DNA of 63,341 nucleotides, the filler included, from Candidatus Woesearchaeota archaeon CG1_02_57_44 (GTDB taxonomy: Archaea; Nanobdellota; Nanobdellia; Woesearchaeales; CG1-02-57-44): the NCBI GenBank assembly GCA_001871415.1. It is 4 parts of 4 records of this genome, joined end to end, with 100 filler letters (N's around TTAATTAATTAA, not from the genome) between each part and the next. Parts side by side here need not be neighbours in the genome. Positions count along the whole stretch, not along the records: positions 1 to 25,777 come from MNWW01000053.1; 3 more parts are not named here. One strand, given 5' to 3'. Positions 9,296 to 21,131 of the stretch are shown here, piece after piece. Both the position numbers and the translations under genes were made by a program. Every line of letters begins with the position of its first letter. Within the stretch, counting starts at the first letter, position 1. The notes below the pieces were generated by a model. That model was not told the origin of the DNA. It did not search any database and was given only the letters and a program-made list of their open reading frames with translations.

Positions 9296-11200
9296 TCATA
9301 GTCTCAACCCTTCAGCCCCAATCTGCCTGCAAGGATAGGTTCCCAATACCGTCACCTGACAATGCTGCTCTGCTGTCCTGAGCGCCTCTGCCAGCGCTCC
9401 TGCAACAATTCCTTCGCAATCGACATAGAACACATAGGTGCCGAGACGCGCGCGGTTAGGCCTGCTCTCCAGCCTGGTAAGGTTCACATCCCGAAACGCA
9501 CCTAGCAGATCATAGAGCAGCCCTGGCCGGTCGCTGGTCGGTACCAGCAGCGCGCTGGTCTTGTATCGGGCATGCTGCGCTGCTCCATCCAGGGAGCCCT
9601 TGCGCAGTTCTCCTGTCTGGGCCGTATCTGATAACAGACCAGACGCCTTTGCCCCTTTCGGCGCGATGACCAGGAATCGTGTCACATTGCCTTTGACATC
9701 CTGGATGTTCCGGTGCAGGATAGACAGACCGTGTTGCGCCGCCGCCAGCGCGGTAGTGACTGCCGCGCTACGAGGACCGCACTGACGCGCGGTCTCAGCG
9801 TTGCTCGAGCAGTAGATGATCTTCGCTGACGGATACGTCCGCTGCAGGAATTGCCTGCACTGCATGTACGCGCTGGGGTGCGCGAAGACGCGCTCAATCT
9901 CCGCGGGTCGCATACCTGACTTCACCGCCAGCATATGGTTGATAGGAATCGTTATTTCTTCGAGTATATCGACATGGCCTGTGCCCAGCAGGTCCAGTAC
10001 CAACCCCTCGCTTCCGGACAAGGTGTTCTCAACAGGGACCACACCTCGGATGAAAGAGCATGGAGAAATATCCGCAGGCGATTGCGCTCTGGTCTGCTCT
10101 TCTCTCGCATCCAATGCCCCCTCTGTTCCCCCGGTCTCAAGCGTATTGACCTCAAGCGCGCTGAACACTTCCGCGACGTGCGACACGAACAACACCCTTG
10201 CCGCCGCGTCCGCCGCGAGCGCTGCCTGATGTGAAAACGTGCCTTCAGGACCAAGCGTGATGATAGTATGCTCATCCAAGAGTCCGAGCCCTACCGTAGG
10301 TAGTGCAGCAGGTGCTTTTGCCACGCTATCAGCCACCGTGCGTATGAGCCGGTCTGTCTCATCCATGGCCTGCGAGCAGAAATCTCCAGCGTGCGCCGCT
10401 GCTTCCTGAAAGAACCGTAAGAAACCATCCCGGTCTGGCGTCGCAAGTACGTTCTGTAGTTCTCGTAGCGCGGCGACATACGCGCCGATGCTTTCAGCAT
10501 TGTGCCTGTTCTGCAATTCGATATCCGCGTAGAGCTCTGGATCCTGCCCGAGTATCCTGCCGACCATGTCAAGGCGAATGCGATAGATTGGACTGCTGTA
10601 TTCCAGAAGCGCCTCTGGTTTCATACCAAGCCTGCGAAGCGCCATGCCAAGCCCGATGGTGCTGAAATGCTGCATGCCCTGGATGATGGCCATGTGCCTG
10701 TCATGCGTCGCCGCGTCCGTCTCCTTGATGACAGCGCCTTCTGAGCACAAGAAATCCAGCACCCATTTGTGCCAGGCATCACCCCTGCCCGGACAGACTA
10801 CGAACGTCTGTCCCTGGAAGGACTGCACTGATGGGCCAAAGACAGGATGCGTACCGACAACAGAACCTGTGCAGCGCTGCAGCATCGCGTTGAGGGGGAA
10901 TTCCTTGAGACTCGTGAGGTCCATGAGCAACGCATCCTTGCGGACCAAGGGCCCCACCTGCCTGATGACCTGCTCGGTGACCGCGATAGGTACGGTGATG
11001 ACGACAACATCGCATTGAGGCACCATCGCTTCCGGTGTGAGCGCTGTGCTCCTGGACGCGATAAGCACCCGATGCCCTCGGCGCTCCAGGATACCTGCGA
11101 ACAGCTGCCCCATCCTGCCTGTGCCGCCGACAATGCCGATGACCTTGGGGCCCGCCATGCCCCTGTCATCCCCCGTAGCGCCGCATCCTGCCATCAGCAT
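9296..11200 (-). CDS. tyrA-pheA: Prephenate dehydrogenase - prephenate dehydratase (+ACT) fusion
   Basis: IGIVGGTGRMG, DLTSLK, THPVFGP, HDRHMA (TyrA); LGPEGTFSH, PVENT, NVTRF, DRPGLL, LTRLESRP (PheA/ACT). Start could also be 11158. Confidence 0.92.
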   Translation of the reverse strand: MLMAGCGATGDDRGMAGPKVIGIVGGTGRMGQLFAGILERRGHRVLIASRSTALTPEAMVPQCDVVVITVPIAVTEQVIRQVGPLVRKDALLMDLTSLKEFPLNAMLQRCTGSVVGTHPVFGPSVQSFQGQTFVVCPGRGDAWHKWVLDFLCSEGAVIKETDAATHDRHMAIIQGMQHFSTIGLGMALRRLGMKPEALLEYSSPIYRIRLDMVGRILGQDPELYADIELQNRHNAESIGAYVAALRELQNVLATPDRDGFLRFFQEAAAHAGDFCSQAMDETDRLIRTVADSVAKAPAALPTVGLGLLDEHTIITLGPEGTFSHQAALAADAAARVLFVSHVAEVFSALEVNTLETGGTEGALDAREEQTRAQSPADISPCSFIRGVVPVENTLSGSEGLVLDLLGTGHVDILEEITIPINHMLAVKSGMRPAEIERVFAHPSAYMQCRQFLQRTYPSAKIIYCSSNAETARQCGPRSAAVTTALAAAQHGLSILHRNIQDVKGNVTRFLVIAPKGAKASGLLSDTAQTGELRKGSLDGAAQHARYKTSALLVPTSDRPGLLYDLLGAFRDVNLTRLESRPNRARLGTYVFYVDCEGIVAGALAEALRTAEQHCQVTVLGTYPCRQIGAEGLRL

Positions 11201-12342
11201 TCCTCTCCACTGCCTGATGGCCCCTGTTCCTGCGTTCCTGACAGTTGCATACGCGCGCACCTGGCGCGCAGCAGAAAGTCAGCGACGACCAATGCTGCCA
11301 TGGCCTCGACGACAGCAACCGCGCGGGAAACGACGCAGGGATCATGACGCGCGTCCGCAGGCGGCGCGAACGTGGCGGCTTTGCCTTGCAGATCAATAGT
11401 CTGCTGCTCCTTGCGTATCGTGCTCGTCGGCTTGAATCCGACCGTGCCGGTGAGCGGCATGCCGGTGGTGATGCCTCCTTGCACACCACCAGCATGATTA
11501 GTCTTGGCTGTCAGTTTCCCGTCGACAATGCCCGTCGGCACGTCATTATGCTCACTGCCACGCATCGCGCACGCATCAAATCCATTGCCCATACCGAACG
11601 CTTTCGCAGCCGGGATGCAGAGCATAGCTTTGGCAAGCTCAGATTCCATGCGCTCGTAGAGCGGCTCGCCCAGACCCGCAGGACAGCCTTCCACAGAGAA
11701 ACGCACAATGCCTCCCAAGCTATCACCTTCCTCTTTTGCCCTCAGGATAGCGACCTCCATGGCAGATGCTGCCTTGCGGTTTGGACATCGTAGCGCATTC
11801 TCTTCTGGATCGCAATCGTGCGCGCCATCACCCGTTGATTCCGACGCCGCAGGCATTGCCACATCACCTATCTGCTCCACCCATGCCCGCACGTGGATGC
11901 CCTGCTCGCTCAGCAGCGATTTCGCTATCGCGCCAGCCGCGACGCGGCACGCGGTCTCCCGCGCCGAAGCCCTGCCACCGCCGCGCCCATCAAAGGCACC
12001 ATATTTGGCAAGCCAGGAGAAATTAGCGTGGCCTGGTCGCACCAGCCCTTCCATGCCCTGATACTGTTCGCTTTTCGCGTCCTTGTTCCTGATGAGTATC
12101 GCGATGGGCGCTCCAGTGCTCTTGCCATCCAGGACGCCTGATAGCACTTCAGGCGTGTCATCTTCCTTCCTGCTGGTCGTGACCGCGCTCTGTCCTGGCC
12201 GCCTGCGGGATAGCTCCGCGGCGATAGCCTGTTCGTCCACCATGACACCTGCTGGACATCCATCGATGACGACGCCGATGGCCTTACCATGGCTTTCACC
12301 GAACGTGGTGATGCGAAAGATTGTTCCCATGCTATTTCCCAT
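11194..12342 (-). CDS. aroC: Chorismate synthase
   Basis: TTFGESHG, RPGHA, GGGRASARETA, FKPTSTI, RHDPCV. Confidence 0.95.
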   Translation of the reverse strand: MGNSMGTIFRITTFGESHGKAIGVVIDGCPAGVMVDEQAIAAELSRRRPGQSAVTTSRKEDDTPEVLSGVLDGKSTGAPIAILIRNKDAKSEQYQGMEGLVRPGHANFSWLAKYGAFDGRGGGRASARETACRVAAGAIAKSLLSEQGIHVRAWVEQIGDVAMPAASESTGDGAHDCDPEENALRCPNRKAASAMEVAILRAKEEGDSLGGIVRFSVEGCPAGLGEPLYERMESELAKAMLCIPAAKAFGMGNGFDACAMRGSEHNDVPTGIVDGKLTAKTNHAGGVQGGITTGMPLTGTVGFKPTSTIRKEQQTIDLQGKAATFAPPADARHDPCVVSRAVAVVEAMAALVVADFLLRARCARMQLSGTQEQGPSGSGEEC

Positions 12343-12344
12343 AA

Positions 12345-12986
12345 TCAGACACCTCTCTTCGAGCCTTCCATCAGTAGCGTGATCCCTTTTGCATCAAGAT
12401 CCCTCCTCAGTCGCAGCGCGCATCGCCTTGCCGTGCTCCGGTTCCAGACCGTGACATCAGCCAGTCGCTCATACGCCGGCATACGCTCATGCCAAAGCGC
12501 GACAAATGACTGTCGTGGCTTGCGCGCATCCAGCATAGCAGGGATTCCCTGCCGCATGATGCGTCGGTATGCTTCCTGCTTTGCGCATCGTATATGCACG
12601 AGGACCATACGACCTGCCTTCTGTTCCCGACGTAGCAGCGCCCTGTTGCGCTGCTGCAGGAGTGCGCCACCCCCAAGCGAAAGCACCGCTGTCTTTCCGG
12701 AGATATCTGCCACGACGCTGCCGAGCGCCTCGCGTTCCAAGGAGCGAAAGTAGCGTGCCCCGTGCGTAGCGTGGATGCTGCGCGCGCTGTGACTGCCTCT
12801 GCAACCAGGCTCATCAAAGACTTGCGCATGCAAGTCGCAGATGCGCGCATCTGCATCAACGAAGGACCAACCGAGCAGCTCGGCAAGTGCCATTCCTACG
12901 GTGGTTTTCCCTGCGCCCTTGAAACCGAGAAGGCAGATGCATGGTGACGACACCGATGACGTCGTGGTGCCTTGTTTTGGCTTCAT
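12345..12986 (-). CDS. aroK: Shikimate kinase (bacterial P-loop type)
   Basis: GFKGAGKTTVG, FVDAD, FRSLE, SLGGG, R..AY motifs. Confidence 0.9.
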   Translation of the reverse strand: MKPKQGTTTSSVSSPCICLLGFKGAGKTTVGMALAELLGWSFVDADARICDLHAQVFDEPGCRGSHSARSIHATHGARYFRSLEREALGSVVADISGKTAVLSLGGGALLQQRNRALLRREQKAGRMVLVHIRCAKQEAYRRIMRQGIPAMLDARKPRQSFVALWHERMPAYERLADVTVWNRSTARRCALRLRRDLDAKGITLLMEGSKRGV

Positions 12987-14374
12987 CTGCTCACCCTCTC
13001 CTGTGTGACAGACACCTTGGCGCCGATGCGCTCAAGCATGCGATAGAATCCAGGATAGGTGATGGACGCGCAACCCACATCAGCGATAATGGTCTCATCA
13101 GCTGCGACCAGCCCTGCCACGCTGAGCGCCATGGCCACCCGATGGTCTGCGTGACTATGCACCATCGCCCCTCGTAGCTGACTCCTCCGGACGCGCAATC
13201 CATCAGCAGTCGCCTCGATATCTGCTCCGAGCAGGGCAAGCTCTTTGGCCATGACCGCTATCCGGTCCGTCTCCTTGCTGCGCGCGTGGGCACAGCCATA
13301 CAGTATAGTCTCGCCCTCTGCCTGCGTAGCTACAACAGCCAGGATGGGCAGCAAGTCCGGTGTATCGGAGAGATTGACGCACACGCCCCTAAGCGCTGTT
13401 TTGGATACCGTGACATTTCGACAGCCTCCCTCAGTTCCATCCTTCCCTCCCGTGTCCTGGCGCGCCCAGTCAACACGCGAGCCCATCTGTCTAAGCACAT
13501 CCAGTATTGCCTTATCACCCTGAGCGTCATCAGGATATAGCCCGGTGACCGTCACCGTGCCTGTAAGAGCGCCTGCGCAGAGCGCGAATGCCGCACTGCT
13601 CCAATCTCCCGGGACGGTCTTGTCAAACGCCTGATAGCGCTGTCCACCAGGAACGTGGAAGCGGATGGGAAAATCATCATGAACAACAGCGCCAAGCTCA
13701 CGCATCCACGCGAGCGTCATGCGCACATAGGGTTGCTCTCGCAGATGCTCCGGCAGTATGATGGCGTCTCCTCTGCCAAGCGCGCTGGCGATGAGCAACG
13801 AGGAGGTGAACTGGCTATTGCTGCCGTCGACCGTAGTCATGCCGCCGCGCAGCGTGCCCGCGACTGTGCAGGGGCAGACGCCTCCTGGATTGCAGCTGGT
13901 ACTCGCGCCTAATGCGAAAAGCGCATCAAGCAACGACTTGACAGGACGCCTGCGGATGCTCGCATCACCGTCGAAACGGGTGATACCACGCCGCAGCGCG
14001 GCGATGCCGGATACAAGGGTCAAGGTGGTCCCTGAATTGCCGACGTCAATGGATACATTGCCGTCCACCAGCGCGCTATTCGTGCCCTTCAGTCTGATGA
14101 TGGTCCCCGCGCGCTCGGCAGCCCTGGATCCAGAGACGCTGGCAGCGACAGGACCGTCAACGATCGCGCCCAGCGCTTGGCATGCCTTGAGCGCTGATGC
14201 GCCATCTCCATCGAGCAAGGGATTACGGATGATGCTCTCCCCATCAGCGAGACTCGCCAGCACAAACGCGCGGATAGTATGGCTCTTGGAAGGCGGCGCG
14301 ATGACACTGCCCTGCACAGTGGATCCATGGACAACTGCGCAGGATACGGACCCTTCAACCTCCGGACTATTCAC
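12983..14374 (-). CDS. aroA: 3-phosphoshikimate 1-carboxyvinyltransferase (EPSP synthase)
   Basis: PPSKSHTIR, GNSGTT, SQFTSSLL, KETDRI, DHRVAM, YPGF. Confidence 0.95.
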   Translation of the reverse strand: MNSPEVEGSVSCAVVHGSTVQGSVIAPPSKSHTIRAFVLASLADGESIIRNPLLDGDGASALKACQALGAIVDGPVAASVSGSRAAERAGTIIRLKGTNSALVDGNVSIDVGNSGTTLTLVSGIAALRRGITRFDGDASIRRRPVKSLLDALFALGASTSCNPGGVCPCTVAGTLRGGMTTVDGSNSQFTSSLLIASALGRGDAIILPEHLREQPYVRMTLAWMRELGAVVHDDFPIRFHVPGGQRYQAFDKTVPGDWSSAAFALCAGALTGTVTVTGLYPDDAQGDKAILDVLRQMGSRVDWARQDTGGKDGTEGGCRNVTVSKTALRGVCVNLSDTPDLLPILAVVATQAEGETILYGCAHARSKETDRIAVMAKELALLGADIEATADGLRVRRSQLRGAMVHSHADHRVAMALSVAGLVAADETIIADVGCASITYPGFYRMLERIGAKVSVTQERVSR

Positions 14375-16428
14375 TGCCCATCACCCATTGACGATTGTGC
14401 ATCAGGGGGGTCATCAACCTCATCAGGATCGTCGGACCCATCAGACCAATCAGGGGATGTGCCCGGCAGAGCATCTTCCACGCTCTGGGTCTCCGATGCG
14501 ACAGCATCAAGGATTGATCCTGGATGCCCATTGCCATCGGTGCTGTCTGCAGGTTCCTGCTGCTCCTGACCCGTGCGCTCCCGCTCTTCCCGCAGTGTCT
14601 CCTCTATGATGGATACGCAGATGTCTGCGGGCCTGCCTGTCCAGTGCTGTGCTTGAAGTGCTGCCTGTGCCCTGAACATCGCAAGGCCATTGATGGTCCT
14701 GCATGGCGCCTCAGTGATCAAACGTGTCCGTAGCGGCGCATAGATGATATCCATGAGCAGCGCGTCCTTTCGTATCTGCCTGACCAGCGCAAGGGGTAGC
14801 GGCATGACCTGCATGTCCGGCGCCATGCCTACCGTAGTGGTATTGATGATGATATCATAGGATGCGACGCTTGGCGGTGGCAGTCTCACCGCAAGCCCTC
14901 CGACAGTTCGTGCCAGTTGCTCAGCATGCGTCAACGTCCGGTTGGAGATGGTCAATGCGCACCCTCTCTGCCGGAGACTGTGCGCGATGGCGCGCGCCGC
15001 GCCTCCAGCTCCGAGGATAAGGACTTTTTTGTCATGCAAAACCCCCTGGGCCCCTGCCGGCGATTGAATAGGCGATGGTTCAGTTGGATCCTGGACCTCT
15101 TCGCGCCGCGACTGTTGTTGCGTCTCATCTACCCATGCGCCCCTGTCAAGCGATGCAGCTTCAGGAGTTTCAGCATCAGTCTGTTGCATTGGTCGCGGAC
15201 ATTCTGCGACAGGTTTGACCTGCGCGACCTCGGTCTCGCGCAGTACGTCTTCCAGCTGTTCCAGGAAATGCTCGTCAATGCCTTCACGCAGATGCGATTC
15301 CAGCACCTCAGCGACCGCTTGCCCATCAGTATTGAACCCGCTGAGTATGCGGGTGCTGATGGACGCCTCTGCGATGATGGTGTTGACCGCCTCCGCCGTC
15401 TCGGAAGCGTCGTCGAGCAGCTGGCACGCATGATATGCGTCATGTTTGCAGGGCGCGGTGACCGATAGCCCTCCAAGGCGCAGGGGCATACGTCGGGCTT
15501 CGCGTATGAATGTCATGAAGTCCTGCACCGCGAAGTGGACATAGATGGCGTCAATACCAAAGTGCCGGAAGATCCTATTGTGCAGGAGAGGAGAGAGGCT
15601 GTGCGCTACAGGATTGCCTACGATACCATAGACGCGCGTGCGCGTGGAATGCGACGACAGGCAAAAGACATCGCGTAGTTCATGCAGCGTGTACTGTCCG
15701 GGCGCAGCCAATGTTCCCGCCTCCGCTGTTCGCTGCGTCCCTTCCTGTTCTTGCGCATCATCCCAGCCGCCCGCGCAGTACGCTATGGCGCTGCCAAGCA
15801 ACGGGCCCAATATCCGTGTATGCCTGCCAAGTCCACCCATGGCGATGCCGATGACCTGCGCATGGCTTCGCCACTGGTCAAGCGCGTGCAGAACCGTAAA
15901 ACCATCAGCGTCGTCCACTGCCATGCCAGCGTACTTGGCGATGTCAGCGCCGTGGCTGAACGCCTTGATGTACCAGGACAGGATATTGCCCACCGTCTCA
16001 GTTCCCTGGATATCATGGCGTGACAGGATGCGTTGCGGAATATGCTGGCCTGACTGCGAATTGCTACCCCCTGCACCAGCCACGCTCCCTTTTTTTATTG
16101 CTAGCGCATCCCACAACCCGGAGCTCTCGTCAATGTCCCAGTAGGCCGCATCAGCGGCCGCCTGATAGAGCGCGATGCGTTCATCGTTTGGCAAAGAGCA
16201 GTTGCCGCCTTCTTCGCTGCTGCGCAGCGTGAAGATGATGCACTCCTGTGCCAGGTTGACCAGTTCCGTGACCAGTTCAGGAGTGATATCAGTGATGCGA
16301 TCAGCGCGAAGCTCCATCAGGACACCATCTCCACGGGCATCAGGGTCGGCCATGACCGATTCCATCTGCCTGCGCGCGTCATCGACCGTAGGGCCGGTGA
16401 TGCACACGCAATAGCGCATCCTGCTCAT
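14371..16428 (-). CDS. aroD-aroE: Type I 3-dehydroquinate dehydratase - shikimate dehydrogenase fusion
   Basis: ELRAD, TLRS.EEGG, SRHD, DIAK, APGQ (AroD); GNPVAHSLSP, SVTAPCK, AVNT, NTDG, GAGGAA, NTTTVGM, DIIYAP (AroE). Confidence 0.92.
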   Translation of the reverse strand: MSRMRYCVCITGPTVDDARRQMESVMADPDARGDGVLMELRADRITDITPELVTELVNLAQECIIFTLRSSEEGGNCSLPNDERIALYQAAADAAYWDIDESSGLWDALAIKKGSVAGAGGSNSQSGQHIPQRILSRHDIQGTETVGNILSWYIKAFSHGADIAKYAGMAVDDADGFTVLHALDQWRSHAQVIGIAMGGLGRHTRILGPLLGSAIAYCAGGWDDAQEQEGTQRTAEAGTLAAPGQYTLHELRDVFCLSSHSTRTRVYGIVGNPVAHSLSPLLHNRIFRHFGIDAIYVHFAVQDFMTFIREARRMPLRLGGLSVTAPCKHDAYHACQLLDDASETAEAVNTIIAEASISTRILSGFNTDGQAVAEVLESHLREGIDEHFLEQLEDVLRETEVAQVKPVAECPRPMQQTDAETPEAASLDRGAWVDETQQQSRREEVQDPTEPSPIQSPAGAQGVLHDKKVLILGAGGAARAIAHSLRQRGCALTISNRTLTHAEQLARTVGGLAVRLPPPSVASYDIIINTTTVGMAPDMQVMPLPLALVRQIRKDALLMDIIYAPLRTRLITEAPCRTINGLAMFRAQAALQAQHWTGRPADICVSIIEETLREERERTGQEQQEPADSTDGNGHPGSILDAVASETQSVEDALPGTSPDWSDGSDDPDEVDDPPDAQSSMGDGQ

Positions 16429-17933
16429 GGAGCATCCTCCTTGGCGCCCTTATTGTTTATTGCCTTCGTATCCTGTTCATTCACCGTCACACCCATCACT
16501 AGCCTGTTTGTCTCCTCTACTGCACGACCCGTCTTCGCGTTGCGCTCCTGCAGAAGTCGCGACTGCCTGATGATCTCTTGCATGACCGCGAGAGCCGCGT
16601 CCTCGTCAAGGCCCAACTGCTTGGCATCTCTTCGCGCGGTATCCAGCACCGCCGCTTCGCGACCCTGATCGAGCACAGCCGCCCCTTGCTTTATTTTCTG
16701 CGTTCCTATCTGCGCGACGATACCCTGCCGTCTTGTGAGATGCACCATCAGTTCCTGATCCAATGCATCGATGCATCGACGAAGTGATGCGATTTCATCA
16801 ACCCCTCCAGAGGATACCGAGCAGGACAGTGCAGGAGCATCCGTTGAGACACAATCCTTATAGCAATGCAGTATCAATTCTGTTTCAGCACCGATGAGCC
16901 ACGGCTCGCTTGTGTCGCCCATGCCTGACAGCCTGACAAAGCGGGCAGCACCGTGTGATGATTTCTTGTCCATGCGCATACTGGCGAGCAGCGCTGCGTC
17001 TGCGACATCAGGAACCATCGTCGGAAGCCCAGCAGCAGTGAGCACGGAAAGCAAGAGCTCACGCTCATCAGGGAGTATATGGCCGAGGCGCTCCAGGAGC
17101 AATGACTCGACGCTCAATCCCATGGCGACGCAGGCGCCATGAGAGAACGCATAGCCTGACAATTGCTCAATAGCATGACCGATAGTATGGCCGAAGTTCA
17201 GTATGACGCGCCTGCCTTGCTCAGCCATGTCATCCGCGACGACGGCCTGCTTGAAGTCCATGCAGTGCCGTATGACGCGCTCGACGCCGGGTGACGCAAC
17301 GGATACAGACAGATCCCTCAGCGATGCGATGTCCTTGAGCAACGCCGCATTGCTGAGCATCGCGGTCTTGATGGCTTCAGCCATCCCGTTGCGCAGCTCC
17401 TCATCAGGCAGCGTCGCCAGAAGGTCCATGTCAGCGAAGACTGCTGAGGGTTCATGGAAAGCGCCGATGAGATTCTTTCCCTGGGCGACGTCGATGGCGG
17501 TCTTGCCACCGATAGACGCGTCCACCATGGCCAACAAGGTGGTAGGCACCGTGCACCAGGGAATGCCCCTGCAGTAGGTCGCCGCGACGAATCCCGCGAG
17601 GTCCGTCAAGCTGCCGCCTCCTATCGCGATGATGGCGCTGTCCCGGCCAAAGCCTGCATCAAGCATCGAGTCCTCTATCCACGTCTTCATGGCGCGGGTC
17701 TTGAGCGCGGGTACTGCGATGCGGACAGTACCTGCGGGCAACGCAGCAAGCAATCGGGACACGAACGCGCCATGCAGCTTGGCTACGTTCTGGTCCACGA
17801 TGACAGCGATGCACCTGCCCTTCCAGGTGTCGGTGACGAAGCTGGCGATGTCATCAGCAAGCCCGTGGCCAAGCTGCAGCTTCGGCCGTGGATTCAGCCG
17901 CTCTTTCGCTGTCGCGTCTCGCGCATCCTTCAT
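16425..17933 (-). CDS. aroB: 3-dehydroquinate synthase - chorismate mutase (AroQ type) fusion
   Basis: GGGSLTDLAGF, PTTLLAMVDASIGGK, LNFGHTIGHA (AroB); C-terminal LRRCIDALDQEL...IGTQK...DQGRE...SRLLQ (CM). Confidence 0.92.
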   Translation of the reverse strand: MKDARDATAKERLNPRPKLQLGHGLADDIASFVTDTWKGRCIAVIVDQNVAKLHGAFVSRLLAALPAGTVRIAVPALKTRAMKTWIEDSMLDAGFGRDSAIIAIGGGSLTDLAGFVAATYCRGIPWCTVPTTLLAMVDASIGGKTAIDVAQGKNLIGAFHEPSAVFADMDLLATLPDEELRNGMAEAIKTAMLSNAALLKDIASLRDLSVSVASPGVERVIRHCMDFKQAVVADDMAEQGRRVILNFGHTIGHAIEQLSGYAFSHGACVAMGLSVESLLLERLGHILPDERELLLSVLTAAGLPTMVPDVADAALLASMRMDKKSSHGAARFVRLSGMGDTSEPWLIGAETELILHCYKDCVSTDAPALSCSVSSGGVDEIASLRRCIDALDQELMVHLTRRQGIVAQIGTQKIKQGAAVLDQGREAAVLDTARRDAKQLGLDEDAALAVMQEIIRQSRLLQERNAKTGRAVEETNRLVMGVTVNEQDTKAINNKGAKEDAP

Positions 17934-18964
17934 GTCTCGTCCCTCACCGCCGTGTGCATCGCCCTGGCCTTGCGGATGATGACCGCGAGCGTCTCAGGCG
18001 TGACCTGCTGGAACGCGTCGGTCAATGCCTCTTCCGGTCTCGGGTGCATCTCTATCATCAGTCCGTCAGCTCCTGCTGCGACAGAGGCAAGGCTCATGGG
18101 CATAATAAGGTTGCGCCGGCCAGTGCCGTGGCTGGGGTCCGAGAAGATGGGTAGATGAGAGAGCTCGTACTTGATGGCCGCGACGCTGTTAAGGTCAAGG
18201 GTATTGCGCGTGTATTTCTCGAACGTGGTGATGCCGCGCTCACATAATATGACCTTTGTGTTGCCATGGCTCATGATGCGCTCGGCGCAAAGCAGCCATT
18301 CCTCAAGCAAGGTTCCCATCTCGCGCTTCAGGAACACGGGGCGCTTCTGTTTGCCCAGCTCATTGAGCAGATGGAAGTTCCTGCCGTTCCTGCTACCGAC
18401 CTGGATGATATCGATATCGTATTTCTCGAATAGCGGCAGTTGCGCCTCGCTCATGATCTCCGTCACCACAGGCAGGCCATATTTGTCCCGCGCCTTGGCG
18501 AGCAGCGCCAGTCCTTCCTCGCCCAGTCCTTCGAATGCATAGGGACTGGTGCGTGGCTTGAACGCGCCACCGCGCAGGATATCGCCGCCCGCTTCCTTGA
18601 TCGCCCTGGCACTGGCCATGATCTGCTCTTCTGATTCAACGGTACATGGACCGGCCATGATGACCAGCTTGCCGTTGCCGATGCTGAGATTGCCGACCGT
18701 GAAGCTGGTGTACGAGCTCTTGCCATTGACGTGCTGATGATATTCCTTGCTCGCGAGCTTGTAGTTCTTGCTGATGCGATACACGTCCTGCACGCCCGGC
18801 AGGCGAAGCTGGTCCTCGTGTATCTTGCTCACGTCCCCTCGGACGCCGAGCACAGACCTCTCGGTACCCACTATCTCGGCAGCGTCAAGGCCAAGCGCCT
18901 TGATGCGTGCTACGACCTTGTCTTTCTGCCCTTTCGTTGCCATCCTGTCCATCTTCACTATCAT
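17930..18964 (-). CDS. aroF: DAHP synthase type I-beta with N-terminal ferredoxin/ACT-like regulatory domain
   Basis: AGPCTVES, GGAFKPRTSPY, LCERGI, DPSHGTG, IEMHP; GAGGTGA SD at 18971-18977. Confidence 0.95.
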   Translation of the reverse strand: MIVKMDRMATKGQKDKVVARIKALGLDAAEIVGTERSVLGVRGDVSKIHEDQLRLPGVQDVYRISKNYKLASKEYHQHVNGKSSYTSFTVGNLSIGNGKLVIMAGPCTVESEEQIMASARAIKEAGGDILRGGAFKPRTSPYAFEGLGEEGLALLAKARDKYGLPVVTEIMSEAQLPLFEKYDIDIIQVGSRNGRNFHLLNELGKQKRPVFLKREMGTLLEEWLLCAERIMSHGNTKVILCERGITTFEKYTRNTLDLNSVAAIKYELSHLPIFSDPSHGTGRRNLIMPMSLASVAAGADGLMIEMHPRPEEALTDAFQQVTPETLAVIIRKARAMHTAVRDET

Positions 18965-19080
18965 CGTTGTTCACCTCAGTAATGTGCGATAATCATTGAT
19001 ATGCTTACCAATATGGCGCATGAGCGTATGCCTGCCACCCAATGCTGCCGAAGAGGGCTGATAGATTGGTACGCATCCAC

Positions 19081-19096
19081 AGGGAAAAAGGAAAAA
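19081..19096 (-). terminator. Pyrimidine/oligo-U tract in aro operon leader (candidate conditional terminator)
   Basis: Minus strand TTTTTCCTTTTTCCCT between the leader peptide and aroF. Confidence 0.5.
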
Positions 19097-19230
19097 TCGC
19101 TGCTATATAGAGAAGATGTATCGCGTGCTGGATGTGATATCGCGTTCTGGATATAGTATGGCTATAGACAATACATCCCTCTTTCGCTCATGCGCGTCGG
19201 GCGTGTAATCTGGAACTTCCCGGACAATGG

Positions 19231-19266
19231 GAGCGTTCATGCGCCAGAAACAGGCAATGAACGCTC
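19231..19266 (-). promoter_or_regulatory. Leader hairpin beginning inside the leader-peptide stop codon
   Basis: GAGCGTTCAT (19266-19257) pairs perfectly with ATGAACGCTC (19240-19231), with an inner TGCC/GGCG extension. Confidence 0.7.
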
Positions 19267-19327
19267 AGGAGCGAAAATAGAAGTAGGACTGGCCAAAGAA
19301 CAATGCCTGCGTGGCCGTCGCATTCAT
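19265..19327 (-). CDS. Putative Phe/Tyr leader peptide MNATATQALFFGQSYFYFRS
   Basis: ATG AAT GCG ACG GCC ACG CAG GCA TTG TTC TTT GGC CAG TCC TAC TTC TAT TTT CGC TCC TGA; 6 of 9 consecutive codons are Phe/Tyr; directly upstream of the Phe/Tyr operon. Confidence 0.8.
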   Translation of the reverse strand: MNATATQALFFGQSYFYFRS

Positions 19328-19350
19328 GCACCTTCGCAGGTTGCGGGAAG

Positions 19351-19359
19351 TATATAAAA
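19351..19359 (-). promoter_or_regulatory. TATA box of aro leader transcript
   Basis: TTTTATATA ending 23 nt before the leader ATG, a spacing that fits a leaderless transcript. Confidence 0.75.
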
Positions 19360-19488
19360 CTATTGCTCACGACGTATCGTTCACCCTGTAGATGCAAAGA
19401 TATGCAGACGCATTGCTTGCACAAGAAATCCACGATTTCTTTGTGTTACGAAGCGGATGTTCAGATAAGGCTGTTTCTTTATAAAGGC

Positions 19489-19980
19489 TTAGAACTTCCA
19501 TCCTTCAGTTCTAAACATCTCTACAATATCGATGCATTCTACTGATTTTTGCCCGCAAACAAAGGGTATTTTGACCTTATTCCCTCTAAGTTTCTCCTCA
19601 GTTACTACTATTCTTTTAATCTTGAATAGTGTTTGTTGTGACTGTGCTGAGAGTTCTATTGCTAGGGCAATTACCCAAGGATCTGCTGAATGCTTTGCAT
19701 TGACATCGATTAGAGCAGGATAATCTTTGAGAATCTCTTGCACTACCTGTATTTGCCTTGCAGTAGGCGCTTTAAAGAGCTTCTTTTGCTTTTTTGCCCA
19801 TTTTGCTAAGGTGTCGTCATAATCCTGAATTTCCTTAAGGACTTCTCTTGGCGCTATGAGGCGATCATTTTGTATGAGTTCACTGATGTTCTTCCATACA
19901 CTGACATAAACGTCCATTGCGTTATGCTTGTTTAGTTCTATAAGGGAAGAAGTGTCGATGATGTAAACATTAGTAGTCAT
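19489..19980 (-). CDS. PIN-domain protein (DUF4411-like)
   Basis: YIIDTSSLI, REVLKEI, ADPWVIALA, VVTEE, KIPFVC. Confidence 0.85.
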   Translation of the reverse strand: MTTNVYIIDTSSLIELNKHNAMDVYVSVWKNISELIQNDRLIAPREVLKEIQDYDDTLAKWAKKQKKLFKAPTARQIQVVQEILKDYPALIDVNAKHSADPWVIALAIELSAQSQQTLFKIKRIVVTEEKLRGNKVKIPFVCGQKSVECIDIVEMFRTEGWKF

Positions 19981-21131
19981 TTTTTCGCCTTTGAGAGTAC
20001 CTTGTCAAAACTCTTTGATTTGATTGATAAGTAGCTGAGAGCATCGGTATAGGTGATGTAATTCTTGTCATAATTATTTGCGACCAAAGAAATAAACTTG
20101 TTGCCGACTTCAGAAAGGCATCTCACTTCTGATTTTATGCCTCCCCCGCCCTTCTTCTCCATTTCTTTCTTTGGAATTGCTTCTTCTTTGTACTGGCTTA
20201 ATTTTTTCTCATAATCAGTCTTTGTAATGTACTTGAGCTTTAGCATATTTACCAAAAGCATCGCCTTGCTCACTTTATACCTGTTTGAAAGCGTCTTTAA
20301 GATAGCTCTTTGGAGTAATTGCGACTTGTTCTCATCAAAAACAGGTTTAGCTATTTCTTTTGGCAATAGGAATGCTGAGGCGAATTCATTGCACCACCTT
20401 TCGACTTCATCTTTGTATGATGCTGTTGCTTCTGGCAGATCAATGACAGATTCTCCCAATAGAATGTGCCCAAACTCATGCATCATCGAGAAGATTCTTG
20501 CTTCAATAGAGTCTTTTGTATTGACGACTATGACACTTGGCGTTTCATCTGCAAAGACGAATCCTCTTGCATCTTCTACAGGCATGGAGAACTGGAACAA
20601 GAAGATGTTGTACTCTTCCAGAACATCCCTTAAGTAGTTGAACAGCTCATAAGGGTTCTTGAATTTCTTTTGTCTTTCTTCTGTAAGAGTAAAGAGTTCC
20701 CTATACTGCTTGGCTATTGATTCAGGGCGTTCACTGATTTTTATTCTCTTGATCTTTGATCCTGTTTCGTAAGCGATGTTTCTTGAAAGCTCTTTGCTTA
20801 ATTCCTGAAGCTTCCTTGATTTTCTCATGACAAGAATGGTCTTTTTATCAAAAATATTTGTCTTACTTGGAAGCATCCTGTAATCTTTTGGCTTTGGCTT
20901 TTCTTGAAGTGGTTTTGAGAGCAGGAATGACGCGATAGGTCTCTTGAAAATGATTGATAACTCTTCCAACTGCCTGTATGTTGGCTTTTTTTCCTTGTTC
21001 AGGAACTTATCTATAGTCTGAGGGCTTGTCTTAAGACGCTTCGCTACCTCTTCCTTTGTCCATCCTGAACTCCCAATAAGCCATTTCAGGACAGACGGTT
21101 CAATGTCCACGAGGATTTGATTTCTAGCCAT
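19977..21131 (-). CDS. XRE HTH + ImmA/IrrE-family metallopeptidase
   Basis: N-terminal HTH (KPTYRQLEELS); FSMMHEFGH (HExxH); ERWCNEFASAFLLP; low GC. Confidence 0.9.
   Translation of the reverse strand: MARNQILVDIEPSVLKWLIGSSGWTKEEVAKRLKTSPQTIDKFLNKEKKPTYRQLEELSIIFKRPIASFLLSKPLQEKPKPKDYRMLPSKTNIFDKKTILVMRKSRKLQELSKELSRNIAYETGSKIKRIKISERPESIAKQYRELFTLTEERQKKFKNPYELFNYLRDVLEEYNIFLFQFSMPVEDARGFVFADETPSVIVVNTKDSIEARIFSMMHEFGHILLGESVIDLPEATASYKDEVERWCNEFASAFLLPKEIAKPVFDENKSQLLQRAILKTLSNRYKVSKAMLLVNMLKLKYITKTDYEKKLSQYKEEAIPKKEMEKKGGGGIKSEVRCLSEVGNKFISLVANNYDKNYITYTDALSYLSIKSKSFDKVLSKAKK

Follow-up and report, generated by a model that had tools for sequence, protein, structure and literature searches.

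The window, a stretch of 63,341 nucleotides from Candidatus Woesearchaeota archaeon CG1_02_57_44, carries an aro operon on its minus strand. By Pfam scan of the window, the genes from aroF down to position 9296 make up a complete shikimate route to Phe and Tyr (Table 1). Several of the enzymes encoded between 9296 and 17933 are fusions joined by long low-complexity linkers (aroB-chorismate mutase, aroD-aroE and tyrA-pheA). The genome measures 1.53 Mb at 82% completeness, and trpA was not found in it. Between trmB and the aro leader lies a DUF4411 gene paired with an HTH/peptidase M78 gene (19489-21131, minus strand; GC 39% versus 56-59%). In many relatives trmB sits directly upstream of the aro leader without this pair, which looks like a mobile toxin-antitoxin-like insertion.

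The leader ahead of aroF opens with an archaeal TATA box and a mini-gene rich in Phe and Tyr codons. Among 64 leaders examined, two unpublished genomes included, the TATA box lies 28-32 nt from the AUG in 53 of the 58 that have a TATA match. From this spacing we infer that the leaders are leaderless first cistrons and that the aro transcript starts at or next to the AUG. The mini-gene peptides have no match in Pfam. The stop of a possible second mini-gene lies 40 nt 5′ of aroF, and the 3′ strand shared by helices c and d lies in its tail; in masked folding of this window (see below) it left access to the aroF Shine-Dalgarno (SD) sequence unaffected (0.47 versus 0.47). A 45-codon ORF at 19240-19103, with neither an SD sequence nor codon bias, was set aside.

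Table 1. Features of the aro leader and operon, and the two further leaders of the same genome
Feature	Position	Strand	Basis or remark
Aromatic leader stretch	TATA box 19359-19351 to DAHP synthase start 18964	-	
Archaeal TATA box	19351-19359	-	Sequence; 32 nt 5′ of mini-gene start
Leader mini-gene, 20 codons, 6 Phe/Tyr codons among the last 11	19265-19327	-	ORF
Sensor codons Phe10, Phe11, Tyr15, Phe16, Tyr17, Phe18	19274-19300	-	U-rich; end overlaps 5′ strand of helix b
Helix a, 14-bp hairpin beginning within the mini-gene stop codon, 7-nt loop, one bulge	19231-19266	-	z -5.8
CAUUGU signal, consensus CA-N-Y-G-U-U	19224-19229	-	1 nt behind helix a
Strand common to helices b and c	19182-19195	-	Near-direct repeat of helix a 3′ arm
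Additional long helix, 19182-19168 with 19124-19109	19109-19182	-	Present in every ribosome state tested
U-tract, resembling those over-represented where ordinary genes of this genome end	19085-19096	-	Single-stranded in all ribosome states
3′ strand of helices c and d	19014-19027	-	Forms helix c whatever the state
Possible second mini-gene, 23 codons, Tyr-Trp end, without SD (uncertain)	19005-19076	-	ORF
aroF Shine-Dalgarno	18971-18977	-	Sequence; not within helices a-d
DAHP synthase of the aroF type, carrying a ferredoxin-like domain; first operon gene	17930-18964	-	Pfam PF00793, PF18152
Remaining operon: aroB-chorismate mutase, aroD-aroE, aroA, aroK, aroC, tyrA-pheA	9296-17933	-	Pfam; ORFs abut or overlap
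Leu/Val-run leaderless mini-gene, 24 codons, with hairpin and signal, ahead of leuA-ilvB	contig C44: 118930-119004	+	
Ile-run mini-gene, 25 codons, ahead of cimA-like gene	contig C8: 25535-25612	+	Post-stop hairpin 23-32 nt ahead of the gene

Cognate-codon leaders in related genomes

DAHP synthase was found in 93 of the 401 genomes of the order (probably Woesearchaeota). That assignment follows two matches: TrmB, encoded nearby, belongs to archaeal clusters labelled most often Woesearchaeota or Nanobdellota, and the top named hit for DAHP synthase comes from an unpublished Woesearchaeota genome. Leaders were called by an automatic rule (a TATA box 27-34 nt before an AUG, 8-42 codons, and the residue class of the tail). 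By this rule a Phe/Tyr/Trp tail precedes 34 of 49 first-gene aroF loci, a Leu/Val tail 25 of 28 leuA loci and an Ile tail 17 of 20 loci of a cimA-like gene, named from its sequence likeness to leuA; the genomes are kin, and these counts therefore overstate independence. Residue class and downstream pathway gave zero cross hits among the three kinds of locus. The 15 aroF loci that failed the rule include three with Trp-ending leaders and five with aromatic leaders that missed the TATA or count threshold, and eight further aromatic leaders precede operons with an internal aroF. The genome studied here has three matching leaders: aro, Leu/Val and Ile.

Across 36 leaders the aromatic residues are concentrated in the last six positions before the stop (-1 to -6), and the peptide sequence is otherwise unconserved. 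Codon usage in the leaders is skewed toward CUA (33 versus 14.6 expected) and CUG (41 versus 18). His leaders were seen at only roughly 10 of the 51 his loci and not in this genome, and no Arg-run leader was found within 1.5 kb of argC at 30 loci, where argC is often internal. A comparison of Trp codons in aro leaders with the presence of trpA (16/22 versus 9/22, Fisher p 0.067) is confounded by kinship and was not used. At DAHP loci of named, mostly bacterial genomes, 6 of 80 had a chance-looking aromatic ORF and 0 had the architecture described here.

Some leaders share more than their sensor codons. Six short Trp leaders of trp operons have Ser-Asp-Cys-x-Trp in common, a conservation that hints at an arrest peptide, and three His leaders ahead of hisG-region genes share Ala-Gly-Cys-Ile-His.

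The hairpin at the stop codon and the signal behind it

Helix a is longer than first described (14 bp rather than 10). Its generality, and that of other pairings, was assessed in a set of 82 leaders, in which own partners were compared with non-cognate ones. The set comprised 36 aro leaders (44 picked by eye, less 8 near-duplicate or doubtful ones), 20 ile leaders and 26 leu leaders (31 leuA loci, of which 3 were dropped for the 64-leader motif count below and 2 more for this test). The 13 nt following the stop pair better with their own downstream sequence, ranking in the top decile in 44 of the 82 leaders and best of all in 28. With about 8 expected by chance, pairings like helix b reached the top decile in 13 leaders, those like c or d in 9, tail with hairpin in 10, tail with SD in 9 and hairpin 3′ arm with SD in 7. 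Only the post-stop hairpin, of the helix a type, is sequence-specific across the 82 leaders. It starts between -2 and +3 nt from the stop in 70 of them, within a search limited to -2 to +7. Compensatory, two-sided changes were seen only in small leu and ile subgroups picked by eye, at 3 of 12 pairs in the former (5 rows) and 8 of 10 in the latter (6 rows). Given MAFFT alignments of 15 leaders each from the leu and aro classes, RNAalifold returned no consensus structure, the sequences being too divergent.

The effect of the ribosome was modelled by folding transcripts that begin at the AUG and run to nine different 3′ ends, with eight ribosome masks. Equilibrium folding can miss kinetic switches, and in a masking control the switch was recovered in one (L328) of two classical-looking aromatic attenuators and missed in the other (L325). 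These two loci, each with a leader, an alternative helix and a hairpin followed by a U-run, lie on metagenome contigs that have no TATA box and are probably bacterial. In the aro leader the pairing probability of helix a is 0.96-0.99 without a ribosome or with one stalled at Phe10 or Tyr15, and 0.75-0.99 with the A site on Phe18; it falls to 0-0.23 once the stop occupies the A site and to 0 when the stop plus 9 nt are covered. For helix a, then, masked folding agrees with the initial annotation, which had ribosome position select the fold; the same does not extend to the network of helices b, c and d (see below).

We also looked for new helices that form when the stop is covered, after dropping 21 of 90 leaders with a weak hairpin or short spacer. 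Of 37 aro leaders, 11 ranked in the top decile under one of four settings and 3-6 under the remaining three, compared with 0-2 of 32 leu and ile leaders; in this window the rank was only 0.18-0.29. At seven aro loci a real alternative helix forms in this state, between the inner strand of the hairpin and sequence immediately 3′ of the hairpin. The alternative helices of the aro subset are mostly followed by A-rich, not U-rich, sequence. Given these helices in some aro leaders, a single mechanism may not cover all leaders.

One nucleotide behind helix a lies CAUUGU, a signal that was not part of the initial annotation and that is a candidate aCPSF1 cleavage or pause site. Its consensus CA-N-Y-G-U-U stands behind the hairpin in 26 of 64 leaders versus 2.6 in shuffles, a pattern defined on the same data; in held-out leaders the count was 9 of 28 versus 1.0, reached in 0 of 2000 shuffles. 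Across the 82-leader set it was found in 31, including 5 of the 20 in the Ile class. At 705 ordinary gene ends CA-N-Y-G-U-U is not enriched (18 sense versus 16 antisense), whereas U5 is (76 versus 39). Measured with the hairpin looped out, the distance of the motif from the stop ranges from -2 to +8 nt in 36 leaders. The bacterial consensus pause (G-10, Y-1, G+1) and the Bacillus-type TTNTTT pause were compared by eye and fit only some of the motifs.

In two His and two Trp leaders whose hairpin is weak or missing, the motif lies 7-9 nt behind the stop. A relaxed pattern, chosen after seeing the rows, occurs in 5 of 20 His and Trp leaders versus 0.35, and the strict pattern in 3 of 20 versus 0.68 (48 of 2000 shuffles reach this). 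One His and one Trp leader of different families share 17 identical bases that include the signal, 7 nt past the stop and with no hairpin. Four His-run mini-genes have a U-rich stretch directly 3′ of the stop and a weak hairpin or none.

From ribosome position to aroF expression

It is very probable that the leader is an amino-acid sensor and that helix a is functional. The aro leader has the look of an amino-acid sensor read out by the ribosome, a type established for bacteria alone. What can be read in the leaders is a common grammar of TATA box, apparently leaderless cognate-codon mini-gene, hairpin at the stop and, often, CA-N-Y-G-U-U, which is the same in Leu/Val and Ile leaders. In biosynthetic operon attenuators stalling must raise expression (PMC11802643, available part).

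The initial annotation had noted the absence of a classical hairpin-plus-U bacterial terminator, and indeed 0 were found in 18900-19500; nor did Rfam give a credible match in 18500-20000 (4 hits, E 2.5-9, all far under the gathering score). Since such a terminator is absent and the genome encodes aCPSF1 (TIGR03675, 879 bits versus a cut-off of 580; contig C55), a factor-dependent output is plausible, which preserves that part of the earlier suggestion of termination through aCPSF1/FttA access; the proposed route through the U-tract, whose accessibility shows no consistent change with ribosome position in the models below, is not supported. According to the available parts of the respective papers, aCPSF1 terminates transcription genome-wide behind U-rich motifs in Methanococcus (PMC7515710), and the Pyrococcus enzyme prefers and cuts single-stranded CA in vitro (PMC3553952). 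FttA contacts nascent RNA at -20 to -36, with U preferred at -30 to -36, and its structures hold contiguous single-stranded RNA, with U rather than C preferred at the cut (PMC11616081, in the portion available).

The reading that we favour, tentatively, is a ribosome-mediated attenuator with one working helix, in which a stalled ribosome blocks cleavage and termination by aCPSF1 just behind helix a. We infer every step of it past ribosome stalling. When Phe- and Tyr-tRNA are plentiful, the ribosome would complete the 20 codons and depart. Helix a would fold after release and bring CAUUGU beside the bare, U-rich tail and stop, where aCPSF1/FttA would load, cleave the nascent RNA at or near CAUUGU and terminate transcription. 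When the charged tRNAs are scarce, a ribosome on the last codons would hide the loading site and RNA polymerase would continue into aroF; the stalled ribosome may additionally compete for Spt5. Held more loosely still is the broader form of this reading, that Woesearchaeota attenuate with a nuclease, a stalled ribosome shielding the hairpin and CAUUGU from the CPSF73 homologue aCPSF1 in aro, leu/ilv and cimA leaders and, in shorter form, in His and Trp leaders.

Several observations count against occlusion by a stalled ribosome. Fewer than half of the leaders carry the motif, and an early stall within an 11-codon Leu run would leave the stop region uncovered. In leu and ile leaders U makes up only some 40% of the tail (39-42% over the last 9 nt plus the stop, in a range of 39-56% overall). 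The FttA structure, in the part of the source available, has no looped-out hairpin, and its preference for U at the cut disagrees with the CA preference; U-rich single-stranded RNA 7-14 nt upstream of the cut would be present only if the hairpin is looped out, the contiguous 3′ arm being purine-rich.

There are four other explanations to weigh. The first is that control is post-transcriptional, without premature termination: a stalled ribosome would protect the leaderless mRNA from 5′-3′ decay or from cleavage at CAUUGU, or would control translation of aroF. Leaderless cognate-run mini-genes do control translation in mycobacteria (10.1101/834739, as far as its available text goes). Tandem leaders, in which a second aromatic mini-gene has its own SD sequence, were observed in two other families, at three loci of one and at a further locus. 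In the three-locus family the tail of the second mini-gene pairs with the aroF SD sequence, which is unpaired at 0.14-0.25 when free and 0.51-0.73 with a ribosome, and in these folding models this pairing would act as a translational switch. SD access in the stalled state exceeds that in the free state in 21 of the 82 leaders and is lower in 2. However, masking raises access by construction, SD access is constant in this window, and pairing of the SD with either the tail or the 3′ arm was at chance level in the 82-leader test. CUC, the best anti-SD Leu codon, is moreover depleted in the leaders (2 versus 11 expected). We consider post-transcriptional control unlikely.

A slightly less likely explanation again is that helix a acts as an antiterminator, like the bacterial 2:3 hairpin. 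Here a ribosome at the stop would melt helix a, the freed 3′ arm would thread into aCPSF1 and the RNA would be cut near CAUUGU, while an intact helix would protect it. The geometry fits, helix a being intact for upstream stalls and lost at the stop. Over the 82 leaders the 3′ arm opens with the ribosome at the stop, its median unpaired fraction going from 0.20 to 0.53, and in 40 of 44 motifs the linear distance from the stop is at least 21 nt, beyond the ribosome. The bacterial-type locus L328 employs its post-stop helix likewise. On the other hand, the 3′ arms are purine-rich (G at 158 of 405 paired bases), a poor match to the U preference of FttA; the hairpin would re-form on ribosome release; and His and Trp leaders carry the motif despite a weak or missing hairpin.

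The third explanation is that of the initial annotation, in which ribosome position picks a fold from a network of mutually exclusive helices (a to d) and thereby governs whether the U-tract (19096-19085) is open to termination by oligo-U or aCPSF1. The helices are real. All four are perfect Watson-Crick pairings, of 10, 8, 11 and 10 bp, respectively, and a and d, b and c, and c and d share strands as described. Long stems also exceed what shuffled sequence gives: 19280-19010 holds three of at least 10 bp versus a mean of 0.023 in 2000 dinucleotide shuffles, none of which reaches three, and four of at least 8 bp versus 0.42 (0/2000). With helix a fixed and the remainder shuffled, 3 of 5000 sequences give three stems of at least 10 bp and 31 of 5000 give four of at least 8 bp. 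Helices a, c and d are not independent, being built from a single word with two copies per orientation. That word, GCGCATGA, is about four-fold over-represented in the genome (237 occurrences versus 57 expected from base composition). Its near-copies lie at 19246-19231 and 19195-19185 and those of its complement at 19267-19253 and 19027-19014; the first two are near-direct repeats, and helix d therefore follows from a and c. Two other sites of the genome (C43:16958 and C57:10) likewise hold three inverted repeats of 10 bp or longer in a span of 271 nt. The idea that helix c is the terminal repeat of a miniature inverted-repeat element was dropped, as no further genome copy was found (blastn of 18961-19400 against the 82% complete genome; best other match 23 nt, E 0.04).

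Under the masks this network does not behave as a switch that controls access to the U-tract. Helix c stands at 0.88-0.99 under every mask once its 3′ strand is transcribed, and helix d never exceeds 0.11. Helix b reaches 0.4-0.97 only with the mini-gene tail free of ribosomes and before 19026 is transcribed, that is, before c can form. At full length the U-tract is unpaired at 0.84 in all states, with values of 0.62-0.98 at earlier 3′ ends that follow no consistent direction, and the aroF SD sequence is unpaired at 0.33-0.46 with no consistent change. In these models only helix a responds to ribosome position, and no downstream element reads that change out. The domain closed by helix c is more stable than shuffles (z -3.0), but its interior is not (z +0.1), and folding of the leader as a whole is unremarkable (z -1.3).

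Homologous leaders point the same way. Pairings like b, c and d are not general, and in 25 of 82 leaders no more than 41 nt separate the hairpin from the start codon, so that many have no room for such a network. The U-tract is not conserved: the best 10-nt window has at most 4 U in 30 of 82 leaders. Directly behind the hairpin, where an intrinsic terminator would have its U-run, the 10 nt hold at most 6 U in all 82. Two metagenome copies of this leader show 0 differences over 436 nt and the next relatives have at most 55% identity, so that the metagenome scan supplied no close relative for covariation of b, c and d. The unusual length of the spacer would allow a lineage-specific add-on, the U-tract resembles those at ordinary gene ends in this genome, and the equilibrium masks did miss one of two control switches; even so, the four-helix switch probably does not hold, and we rate it as improbable. 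We propose that a repeated word within this exceptionally long spacer gave rise to helices b, c and d as lineage-specific by-products, and helix c may simply package that spacer. The network is probably for the most part a by-product, yet one that contains the conserved core of a probable archaeal attenuator.

Finally, it is very unlikely that ribosome position regulates nothing here, the mini-genes being small hydrophobic peptides or relics and the helices incidental: the Leu/Val and Ile tails do resemble short membrane anchors, the automatic rule misses 15 of the 49 first-gene aroF loci and no Arg-run leader was seen within 1.5 kb of argC at 30 loci, but residue class tracks the downstream pathway with zero cross hits, the peptides are otherwise unconserved, codon usage is skewed and TATA spacing is tight.

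Comparison with known leader systems

The leader resembles C. glutamicum aroR-aroF (Neshat et al. 2014, via the available part of PMC11802643) and E. coli pheL and trpL in placing a short Phe/Tyr peptide ahead of DAHP synthase, with stalling as the proposed signal. It differs from them in its archaeal TATA promoter, its leaderless start and a codon run that abuts the stop. It also has no hairpin-plus-U terminator and no general alternative helix, and instead carries CA-N-Y-G-U-U behind a single hairpin. Of the features of a classical attenuator, a leader ORF rich in the pathway amino acid is present; an intrinsic terminator is not, nor does this window show an antiterminator/terminator pair chosen by the ribosome, as judged with masks that missed one of two control switches. 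We therefore do not class the aro leader with the aroR/pheL/trpL type.

The polycysteine leaderless ORFs of mycobacteria (10.1101/834739; PMC1262725; both as far as their available text goes) resemble the aro leader in several respects: a leaderless first cistron (here judged from promoter geometry only), a cognate run near the stop, no intrinsic terminator and several operons controlled in parallel. In the mycobacterial ORFs, however, the tail sequesters the downstream ribosome-binding site. In the present set tail pairing with the SD sequence is at chance and in this window it is absent, such a duplex being seen only for the second mini-genes of one family. Lacking this duplex, the aro leader is not assigned to the mycobacterial Cys type either.

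Leader control is Rho-dependent at E. coli tnaC and Salmonella mgtL. Archaea are not known to have Rho. The proposed logic is similar in that a stalled ribosome would keep a termination factor off the site where it loads, with the difference that the factor here would be a nuclease, aCPSF1/FttA, and not a helicase. Metazoan histone mRNA 3′ ends are formed by a stem-loop followed by a cut near CA, an arrangement that the hairpin and CAUUGU resemble. Control of tna is mentioned in the available part of PMC1262725.

As with known aCPSF1/FttA terminators, the factor is encoded in the genome; its reported preferences are single-stranded CA and U-rich RNA (PMC7515710; PMC11616081; PMC3553952; available parts). 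The sites described in those parts are gene-end U-tracts with no preceding hairpin, whereas the candidate here would be conditional and is located in a leader. According to a 2021 paper, in its available part, archaea have no known mechanism of transcription attenuation or antitermination (PMC8448881). Direct evidence that archaeal transcription and translation are coupled is described as scarce in a 2025 review (PMC13681488). Our literature search, with subscription papers and supplements such as small-ORF tables from archaeal ribosome profiling outside its scope, found no archaeal leader-peptide attenuator; the string "attenuat" is absent from PMC8116511, PMC13675443 and PMC13663744. Nuclease-executed attenuation, if true, would be the first archaeal attenuator and would combine a bacterial sensing principle with a eukaryote-like cleavage terminator.

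A cassette of 60-110 nt holds the sensor, one hairpin and one candidate cleavage signal, and it can be transferred to reporters in Methanococcus, Thermococcus or Haloferax. Because the cassette is small and movable, coupling and conditional aCPSF1 termination are directly testable, and the practical gain of the present analysis is that experiments can be aimed at helix a and CAUUGU and not at the distal U-tract. The leaders would also mean fine biosynthetic control even in small-genome archaea. At seven loci an aromatic leader stands ahead of genes resembling transketolase halves, read from their N-termini, upstream of aroF, which suggests that the supply of erythrose-4-phosphate may be co-regulated with the aromatic pathway there.
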